Positions 19,223 through 20,114 of a stretch of DNA of 20,554 bases are shown here, piece after piece. Position 1 is the first letter of the stretch; each line of letters opens with the position of its first letter. A program made the translations under genes and the position numbers. The DNA is taken from the IMG/VR virus record IMGVR_UViG_2541047172_000030; one strand, written 5' to 3'. Origin of the DNA: a virus. Lineage: Duplodnaviria; Heunggongvirae; Uroviricota; Caudoviricetes. Under the pieces are notes generated by a model. The model saw only the letters and a program-made list of their open reading frames with translations, ran no database searches and was not told the origin of the DNA.

Positions 19223-19423
19223 ATGTATCGAAACATACGGTGCCGACACTGCAATAAGCTACTGGCACGGGCCAGTTTCAGTTATCTGGAAGTAAAATGT
19301 CCGCGCTGTAAAACCCTCAATCAAATCACATCTCCGAGCGCCACAGAGCACCCCACATACACAAGGAAATCCTGTCGTGGGGAACAGAAAGCAAGTCACA
19401 TCCCGAATCATCAGCACGCCTGA
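19223..19423 (+). CDS. com: Com: zinc-finger translational activator of mom
   Basis: The ATG at 19223 has AGGAGG 10 nt upstream; ORF-track entry 19178-19423 begins at an upstream TTG. The 66-aa product [35 protein letters not shown]... aligns with Mu Com (IRCKNCNKLL...IRCPRCK...) including both Cys pairs (recollection). Overlaps the mom start. Confidence 0.8.
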
Positions 19424-20114
19424 ACTTATTCGCTATAACGACAATATCGTTGGTTATGGCTCCCGTGAGTTGCGGGTTGAGACAATAAGTTGCTGGCTGG
19501 CCAGACTGGTCATCGTCAATAAACATTACAGCCACCGTTTCGTAAATAACTCCTACCTTCATCTGGGCATATTTTCAGAACGGGAACTTGTTGGCGTAAT
19601 GCAATGGGGTTACGCCCTTAACCCAAACAGTGGTGCACGCGTCGTAACGGGTACGCAGAACCGAGAATATATGGAGCTTAACCGGCTATGGCTGCATGAC
19701 TGTATGCCGAGAAACTCCGAATCAAGGGCAATCAGTTACGCGCTCAAGCTAATCAGGCAGCTTTATCCGCAGGTACAGTGGGTTCAGTCGTTTGCAGATG
19801 AGCGTTGTGGCTGTCTTGGTGTCGTGTATCAGGCAAGCAATTTTGATTATGTAGGCAGCCATGAATCAATATTCTATGAACTTGATGGCGAGTGGTATCA
19901 CGAGATTTGCAGGAATGCCATTAAACGAGGCGGACAACGAGGTGAACATCTGAGGGCTAATATTGACAGAGCCAGTGTTCATAAGTTCCGACAGTTTCGT
20001 TACATCCGGTTTCTGAACAAGAGGGCCAGAAAACGCCTCAACACAAAGCTATTCAAAGTCCAGCCTTACCCAAAACCACAAACAGTTAAAACTGGTTTGA
20101 AAGAGAGTGAATGA
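19377..20114 (+). CDS. mom: Mom-like DNA modification protein (adenine modification, anti-restriction)
   Basis: 245-aa ORF starting at a GTG with AAGGAA upstream, overlapping the 3' end of com by 47 nt in another frame. It is the last phage gene before the end repeats, as in Mu. Assignment rests mainly on synteny with com. Confidence 0.7.

Follow-up and report, generated by a model that had tools for sequence, protein, structure and literature searches.

At its right-hand end, a 20,554-nt stretch of virus DNA (Caudoviricetes; IMG/VR record IMGVR_UViG_2541047172_000030; the window hereafter, meaning this whole stretch) carries two overlapping genes that resemble com and mom of phage Mu, and the locus raises the question of whether they form a complete DNA-modification module that works as it does in Mu. 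The initial annotation, made from the sequence alone, had proposed such a module with a function in anti-restriction. We consider it very probable that positions 19107–20242 hold a complete and intact com-mom operon, together with the right end of a Mu-like (Sp18-type) transposable Escherichia coli prophage, and that the operon follows a Mu-like mechanism. Judged by its likeness to the Mu system, the module is apparently functional.

The com and mom genes

The com gene (19223–19423, plus strand) starts at an ATG and encodes 66 amino acids (aa), preceded by a Shine-Dalgarno sequence, AGGAGG, that can be read on the same strand at 19207–19212, 10 nt before the ATG. The mom gene (19377–20114, plus strand) starts at a GTG and encodes 245 aa. 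The two genes share 47 nt (19377–19423) and are out of frame with each other. The gene coordinates, taken from the open reading frame (ORF) list, agree exactly with those of the initial annotation, as do the overlap and the two CxxC pairs in Com. Translation of the mom frame upstream of 19377 gave a stop codon at 19293–19295 and no ATG, GTG, or TTG after it, so the GTG at 19377 is the sole possible start of mom. This codon aligns with the Mu GTG at NC_000929 35907, which has been described as the "Mom GUG start codon" and lies in the stem of the Mu translation-inhibition structure (PMC6483171). In RefSeq, Mu Mom is annotated from an ATG ten codons upstream of the GTG; the Delta10 form of Mu Mom, begun at the GTG, showed that this ten-residue truncation is fully tolerated (PMC13219725). 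In an identical prophage, the Prokaryotic Genome Annotation Pipeline (PGAP) places com and mom at these coordinates too, and each protein has an exact RefSeq counterpart already annotated as such (WP_001310452.1 for Com, WP_000528251.1 for Mom).

Com is a zinc-ribbon protein with four cysteines (Cys7, Cys10, Cys26, and Cys29) in a CxxC...CxxC arrangement, and its sequence includes KCPRCK. It matches the Pfam family Zn_ribbon_Com (PF10122; 46.9 bits against a cut-off of 22.9, E 1.9e-12) and phrog_13819, "gpCom control of modification" (E 7.8e-13). In pairwise alignment it is 46% identical to Mu Com and all four cysteines align, as the initial annotation had noted for both pairs; they are also invariant across 15 diverse Com sequences. 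Its size and architecture (within ~60–70 aa, with an N-terminal zinc ribbon) are those of the family, its profile scores stand above threshold, and the gene lies where a com gene is expected, at a Mu-like phage's right end and directly 5' of a modification gene that it overlaps. We therefore describe it as the putative RNA-binding translational activator of mom. PGAP names the Com of the identical prophage a "Com family DNA-binding transcriptional regulator". This name conflicts with the experimental literature, in which the Com proteins of Mu and Haemophilus bind RNA and activate translation (PMC6483171).

Predicted translational control at the com/mom junction

The binding site of Com in Mu is a short hairpin whose loop carries a CC(N)2-3GAG motif, and it lies directly 5' of the hairpin that sequesters the mom start (PMC6483171). 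The initial annotation had suggested that a start-occluding hairpin and a Com site should be found where the two genes overlap, and candidates for both are present. A predicted translation-inhibition hairpin (19351–19382, plus strand), supported by folding and by relatives, has an outer 6-bp stem formed by CCCCAC (19351–19356) and GUGGGG (19377–19382), the 3' arm of which contains the mom GUG (19377–19379). In an inner stem, the GG of AAGGAA (19363–19368), the Shine-Dalgarno sequence of mom, is also paired. The hairpin lies at the position of the Mu translation-inhibition structure and has a local free energy of -11.5 kcal/mol, compared to -9.5 kcal/mol for the Mu hairpin. Pairing probabilities of the Shine-Dalgarno GG and the GUG were 0.97–1.0 in the window mRNA, and an ensemble fold of the complete com-mom 5' region gave a pairing probability of at least 0.99 for the GUG in both the window phage and Mu.

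Directly upstream lies the candidate Com recognition element (19336–19352, plus strand), GAGCGCC-ACA-GAGCACC. It corresponds to the bipartite consensus obtained for Com by systematic evolution of ligands by exponential enrichment (SELEX), NGAGNNCC(N)2-3GAGNNCCNN (PMC6483171). The pattern GAGNNCC-N3-GAGNNCC occurs a single time over the two strands of the 20.5-kb window, at 19336–19352, with 0.03 occurrences expected by chance. The candidate site holds a short hairpin (GCGC at 19338–19341, a CACAGA loop, and GCAC at 19348–19351), and it abuts the inhibitory hairpin, C19351 being common to both. Since the two hairpins share this nucleotide, whatever stabilizes one of them would be expected to weaken the other. 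Of the switch put forward in the initial annotation, in which Com unmasks mom, the motif and the hairpin burying the start are thus present, while for Com binding and the unmasking itself we infer from homology with Mu.

Both elements are conserved. The CCCAC...GUGGG pairing around the GUG start is kept in all enterobacterial com-mom types, as seen across 40 distinct com-mom junctions from genomes and viral contigs. For the Com hairpin, we compared the 15 types that have the element, picked partly by a pairing-aware scan, with columns set by homologous codon positions. In this table, 95% of the cells were paired and three of the four stem pairs had changes on both sides (AUGC/GCAU, GCAC/GUGC, GUGC/GCAC, and AAGC/GCUU), a level of covariation reached by no shuffle or slid register. 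The canonical CC-N3-GAG hairpin was absent from four loci, three of them of the Symbiopectobacterium/Pantoea type (L006, L019, and L056) and the fourth being L052; in these, another stem seems to hide the Shine-Dalgarno sequence. No Rfam family matched the com/mom junction, a search of 18900–20554 returning just two sub-threshold chance matches.

Mom and its predicted chemistry

The 245-aa protein belongs to the Mom family, which has a GNAT fold, and not to an unrelated one. It covers the full PF25680 profile (positions 1–202) with 258.9 bits against a cut-off of 27.1 (E 4e-77), its PHROG match is "Mom-like DNA modification protein", and it matches the Mom crystal structure (PDB 8BV8) over residues 5–233 (E 4.5e-124). 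Pairwise alignment gave 79% identity to Mu Mom. The residues reported as essential or important in Mu Mom are H48, Y49, R101, S114, D139, and Y149 in a 231-aa numbering (PMC7261163), equivalent to H58, Y59, R111, S124, D149, and Y159 in a 241-aa numbering, to which W48, R151, and W181 were later added (PMC13219725). All nine mutagenesis-defined residues are invariant in the same alignment, with window residues W40, H50, Y51, R103, S116, D141, R143, Y151, and W173 corresponding to Mu W48, H58, Y59, R111, S124, D149, R151, Y159, and W181, i.e., the window number is the Mu number of the 241-aa scheme minus 8. The helix-turn-helix (HTH)-like insertion of Mu Mom (~175–209), which is needed for activity, has a gap-free and highly conserved counterpart at window residues 167–201, as judged from the alignment.

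Mom moves glycine from Gly-tRNA(Gly) onto adenine N6 within double-stranded DNA, and the product then rearranges on the base to N6-carbamoylmethyl-adenine (PMC13219725). This route has superseded an earlier proposal based on acetyl-CoA and iron (PMC7261163). The initial annotation had pointed to an acetyltransferase-type fold; the fold stands, but conventional acetyl-CoA chemistry does not, given the Gly-tRNA(Gly) donor (PMC13219725). One RefSeq record carries the name "tRNA(Gly)-dependent adenine aminoacyltransferase Mom".

Upstream control region

The predicted control region (19107–19179, plus strand) contains a perfect 9-bp inverted repeat, AATCGATCG-N7-CGATCGATT, at 19155–19179, and three overlapping matches to the OxyR consensus, the whole lying 44–116 nt upstream of com. 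The dyad includes two GATC (Dam) sites (19159–19162 and 19172–19175) spaced 13 bp apart. The OxyR matches score 14/20 at 19107, 13/20 at 19129, and 13/20 at 19138, and the last covers both GATC sites. The first is the single best in the window on both strands and the other two are among the three next-best; by the same scoring, the known Mu OxyR region reaches 13/20. A cluster of two to three GATC sites also lies upstream of com in most of the com-mom loci examined. The arrangement supports, but does not prove, that Dam-dependent relief of OxyR repression is conserved here.

We also considered whether the GATC dyad might be a shared late-promoter or C-regulon motif and rejected this, as CGATCG-N5-10-CGATCG occurs once in the 41-kb prophage. 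Inspection by eye for a motif common to the com upstream region and other intergenic regions of the prophage gave nothing convincing. GATC is not enriched in the window (76 observed vs. 78.6 expected). From 19176 to 20512, a stretch of 1337 nt spanning com, mom, and the phage end contains no GATC, compared to a window average of about one per 270 nt. This may simply reflect base composition, and since Mu mom contains GATC it is not a family trait.

Distribution and selection

Positions 18900–20242 of the window are identical at every nucleotide (100%) to a Mu-like prophage in RefSeq genomes, as established against strain OkiPb01711 and the listed O157:H7 strains. By its sequence, the prophage is a Mu-like element of the Sp18 type, common in E. 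coli strains of the O157 type. Homologs of Mom and its regulators have been noted at the equivalent position in Sp18 of O157 Sakai (PMC3299994), and Sp18 has been predicted to be intact, with efficiently packaged DNA (PMC2669165). The com-mom module of the window is therefore already known and annotated, with the same sequence present in hundreds of genomes and the Sp18 homologs in the literature.

A search of the 5426 complete E. coli genomes returned a mom gene of this type in 226. It occupies as many as four sites in a single genome and has a variety of host genes as neighbors, which indicates recent transposition. In 25 close relatives, mom had no premature stop, and the distinct variant codons were 76 synonymous vs. 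23 non-synonymous, a pattern that points to purifying selection.

Exchange of the modification gene

The gene that follows com can differ between phages that are near-identical on either side of it. The Mu-like phage Mu_JNE122137 (L001; LC727895.1, 3221–4700) is near-identical to the window from ~18960 to mom codon 4, a span that includes the promoter region as well as com, the Com site, the hairpin, and the GTG, and again from ~20145 to the phage end. Between these, the body of mom is replaced by a 350-aa C5-cytosine DNA methyltransferase (PF00145, E 2e-42) that uses the same GTG start, with breakpoints just 3' of the hairpin and ~30 nt past the mom stop. This variant occurs in 10 of the 5426 complete E. 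coli genomes, vs. 226 with mom.

Among the 80 best Com-encoding IMG/VR loci (L106–L185), the gene overlapping the 3' end of com was mom in 26, the C5 methyltransferase in seven, and another gene in 47. Ten representatives of these 47 were tested, and all ten were N6-adenine methyltransferases (PF02086 D12 or PF01555 N6_N4). The enterobacterial C5 and N6_N4 variants keep both the Com site and the CCCCAC...GUGGGG hairpin. Com thus appears, from these comparisons, to gate at least four enzyme classes (Mom and the C5, D12, and N6_N4 methyltransferases). Replacement of mom behind com by N6-adenine methyltransferases has been described in FluMu, Pnm1, Hia5, and B3 (PMC3299994); our four-class census extends this published observation and leaves its principle unchanged.

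Proposed mechanism and alternative explanations

By homology with Mu, the com-mom transcript would arise from a weak, activator-dependent promoter during late lytic growth, with the GATC/OxyR region making it dependent on Dam methylation. Com would be translated from its own strong Shine-Dalgarno sequence, while translation of mom would at first be blocked, GUG 19377 and part of the Shine-Dalgarno sequence being locked in the 19351–19382 hairpin. Binding of Com to the CC-N3-GAG hairpin and bipartite motif at 19336–19352 would then open the adjoining hairpin and let ribosomes start at the GUG. Mom, with Gly-tRNA(Gly) as donor, would turn a fraction of the adenines in double-stranded phage DNA into N6-carbamoylmethyl-adenine, and the packaged DNA would resist many restriction enzymes. 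For this phage, we infer the binding of Com, the unmasking of the start, the dependence on Dam, OxyR, and C, the chemistry, and the protection from their likeness to the Mu system.

Several observations weigh against this account, the first group of them concerning the RNA. The Com hairpin stem has just 4 bp, including a C.A mismatch (19339/19350), and its predicted stability is marginal (-1.7 kcal/mol). The mismatch arises from a Ser codon, AGC, facing the A of a His codon, and it accounts for all of the unpaired cells in the 15-type covariation table, being found solely in the window lineage. In the close relative L044, a synonymous AGU gives a U-A pair and a perfect 4-bp stem; the variation may tune Com affinity or hairpin stability. 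The 111-nt junction region folds no better than shuffled sequence (z = 0.08), as is likewise the case for the Mu junction (z -0.14), and a complement to CCCCAC arises within 45 nt of the start in ~7% of mononucleotide shuffles, the stretch being rich in C and A. Because of this last figure, the structural argument rests on homology and conservation, and not on one-sequence statistics.

The remaining observations concern transcription. In Mu, the binding site of the activator C, the C box (TTAT-N6-ATAA), lies between the GATC region and the -10 element. No such box was found with up to one mismatch in 19100–19222, and a promoter scan detected no sigma-70-like promoter on the plus strand upstream of com. 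In addition, 43 nt separate the end of the dyad from the com ATG vs. 70 nt in Mu, placing the GATC/OxyR region ~27 nt closer to com, and transcriptional control may therefore be wired differently from that of Mu. The identical prophage of OkiPb01711 encodes a Mor/C-family activator directly upstream of the lysozyme gene, with 39% identity to Mu C and 27% to Mor. An activator is thus available but may recognize a different site, which is plausible given how far this C ortholog has diverged from that of Mu. Among close relatives, variation in the region is highest between the dyad and the com Shine-Dalgarno sequence.

These transcriptional points can be cited for an alternative in which the genes are intact but their transcription is not wired as in Mu. 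Here the Dam/OxyR-type dyad would overlap or replace the activator/-35 region, and the main control of mom would come from a switch sensitive to methylation, or from a C ortholog that binds another site, and not from a C box placed between the GATC region and the -10 as in Mu. We regard this as unlikely, though it deserves consideration. It would touch the transcriptional layer alone and leave the Com, hairpin, and Mom mechanism unchanged; moreover, an activator so diverged would be expected to use another site anyway, and the uniqueness of the CGATCG-N5-10-CGATCG dyad in the prophage implies that it is not a shared late-promoter element. A more elaborate proposal combines the exchange of enzymes described above with such rewiring, treating the Com site, hairpin, and GUG as a portable translational gate behind which genes are swapped, and the compacted Dam/OxyR-like dyad region without a C box as a methylation-sensitive on/off control unlike that of Mu; we give this combination somewhat less credence again. 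The lack of a recognized promoter and the mismatch in the Com hairpin could also be taken to mean that the module is a silent relic, with intact-looking ORFs that are unexpressed or encode an inactive enzyme and provide no anti-restriction function. This is improbable, since the identity of 18900–20242 to prophages at many insertion sites implies recent transposition of a live phage, the codons of the 25 relatives show the pattern of purifying selection and no stops, all functional Mom residues are conserved, and Sp18 is predicted to be intact and is packaged (PMC2669165). We give hardly any weight to the idea that Com is a DNA-binding transcriptional regulator here, with mom translated independently of it: the RefSeq product name is the one point in its favor, whereas Com of Mu and Haemophilus binds RNA and activates translation (PMC6483171), and precisely at the com/mom junction the window has, in conserved form, the RNA motif for Com as well as the hairpin that occludes the mom start. 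An intact com-mom operon with a Mu-like mechanism thus remains the explanation that we prefer.

Prophage right end, cargo genes, and insertion site

Downstream of mom, a 13-nt inverted repeat, GAAAAGCGCCGAT / ATCGGCGTTTTTC (20145–20191, plus strand, with arms at 20145–20157 and 20179–20191), ends in a T run (TTTTT) and may be the terminator of the com-mom transcript, a weak candidate given its 21-nt loop. The right end of the prophage (20161–20242, plus strand) carries three direct repeats, GTATCAAA(T/A)..., at 20161, 20196, and 20218, which are likely transposase-binding sites, though putative. The prophage ends at 20242, 128 nt past the mom stop, and identity to the OkiPb01711 prophage stops at 20243. 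Its end sequence, ...GCCGCGCTATA, is without the final CA of Mu.

From 20243 onward, the window contains the 3' part of the host gene fitA, which encodes a TonB-dependent siderophore receptor, with the frame open across the junction; fitA is interrupted by the prophage. No such junction occurs in any of the 5426 complete E. coli genomes searched. Elsewhere, the same phage adjoins dcuC, psiE, comR, ygbM, and other genes, and such varied insertion sites are consistent with active Mu-type transposition. The full prophage, as seen in the identical one in RefSeq genomes, encodes MuA/MuB-type transposition genes, Gam, the C ortholog, Mu-type head and tail genes, and a Gin-type invertase.

The invertase gene lies at 15296–15856 in the window, and between it and com are ~3.3 kb that are absent from Mu. 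This segment comprises genes for a 679-aa SASA-esterase/DUF6645 protein (15956–17995) and a DUF826 protein (18360–18605), a Cys-rich ORF of 154 aa on the minus strand (18644–19108) with no Pfam match, and a DUF1378 protein that is annotated in the identical prophage. With 18900–20300 as the query, 1237 E. coli records matched, 228 of them with the body of mom, and the cargo between the invertase and com probably explains the gap between these counts. Upstream of where the window starts, the identical prophage also carries an annotated "tRNA-OTHER" feature.

Comparison with known systems

As com-mom is a textbook system, the locus carries little weight as a discovery and is useful as annotation. 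The module gives the position of the right end of a Mu-like transposable phage that is apparently live and has disrupted fitA, and it leads to the prediction that DNA packaged by this phage is adenine-hypermodified and resistant to many restriction systems. For Shiga-toxin-producing E. coli, such resistance would have consequences for transduction and host range. The finding of one Com/hairpin cassette with four enzyme classes illustrates the modular exchange of toxic DNA-modification genes.

One close counterpart is the com-mom operon of Mu itself (Mup54/Mup55, NC_000929 35768–36602), which shares the gene order and the location at the right end of a transposable phage. In both, the genes overlap out of frame (50 nt in Mu, counted from the GUG, and 47 nt in the window), a CCCAC/GUGGG hairpin holds the GUG in its 3' arm and has a CC-N3-GAG Com hairpin directly 5' of it, and a GATC region with the arrangement AATCGATCG-N-GATCGATT lies upstream of com, the spacing being N8 in the Dam/OxyR region of Mu. 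The differences are mostly in the details of control. Mu has three GATC sites and the window two; the window has no recognizable TTAT-N6-ATAA C box and no in-frame ATG upstream of the GUG, and its inhibitory hairpin has a longer loop (20 nt) and an inner stem pairing the Shine-Dalgarno sequence. The Com hairpin stem is AUGC/GCAU in Mu and GCGC/GCAC, with the C.A mismatch, in the window. Furthermore, the window Mom has a 12-aa C-terminal extension, and the gene directly before com is gin in Mu, whereas lambdoid-type cargo genes occupy this place in the window.

The identical RefSeq prophages, represented by OkiPb01711 and the listed O157:H7 strains, and presumably Sp18 of E. coli O157:H7 Sakai, differ from the window phage in insertion site alone, which is fitA here. 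A further comparison is with the Com-controlled methyltransferases of FluMu (hin1523), Pnm1 (nma1821), Hia5, and B3 (ORF48) described by Drozdz et al. in 2012 (PMC3299994). These likewise have a com homolog directly upstream of, and usually overlapping, a modification gene at the phage's right end, with presumed Com-dependent translation; however, the enzyme encoded there is an N6-adenine methyltransferase, whereas the window encodes a true Mom.

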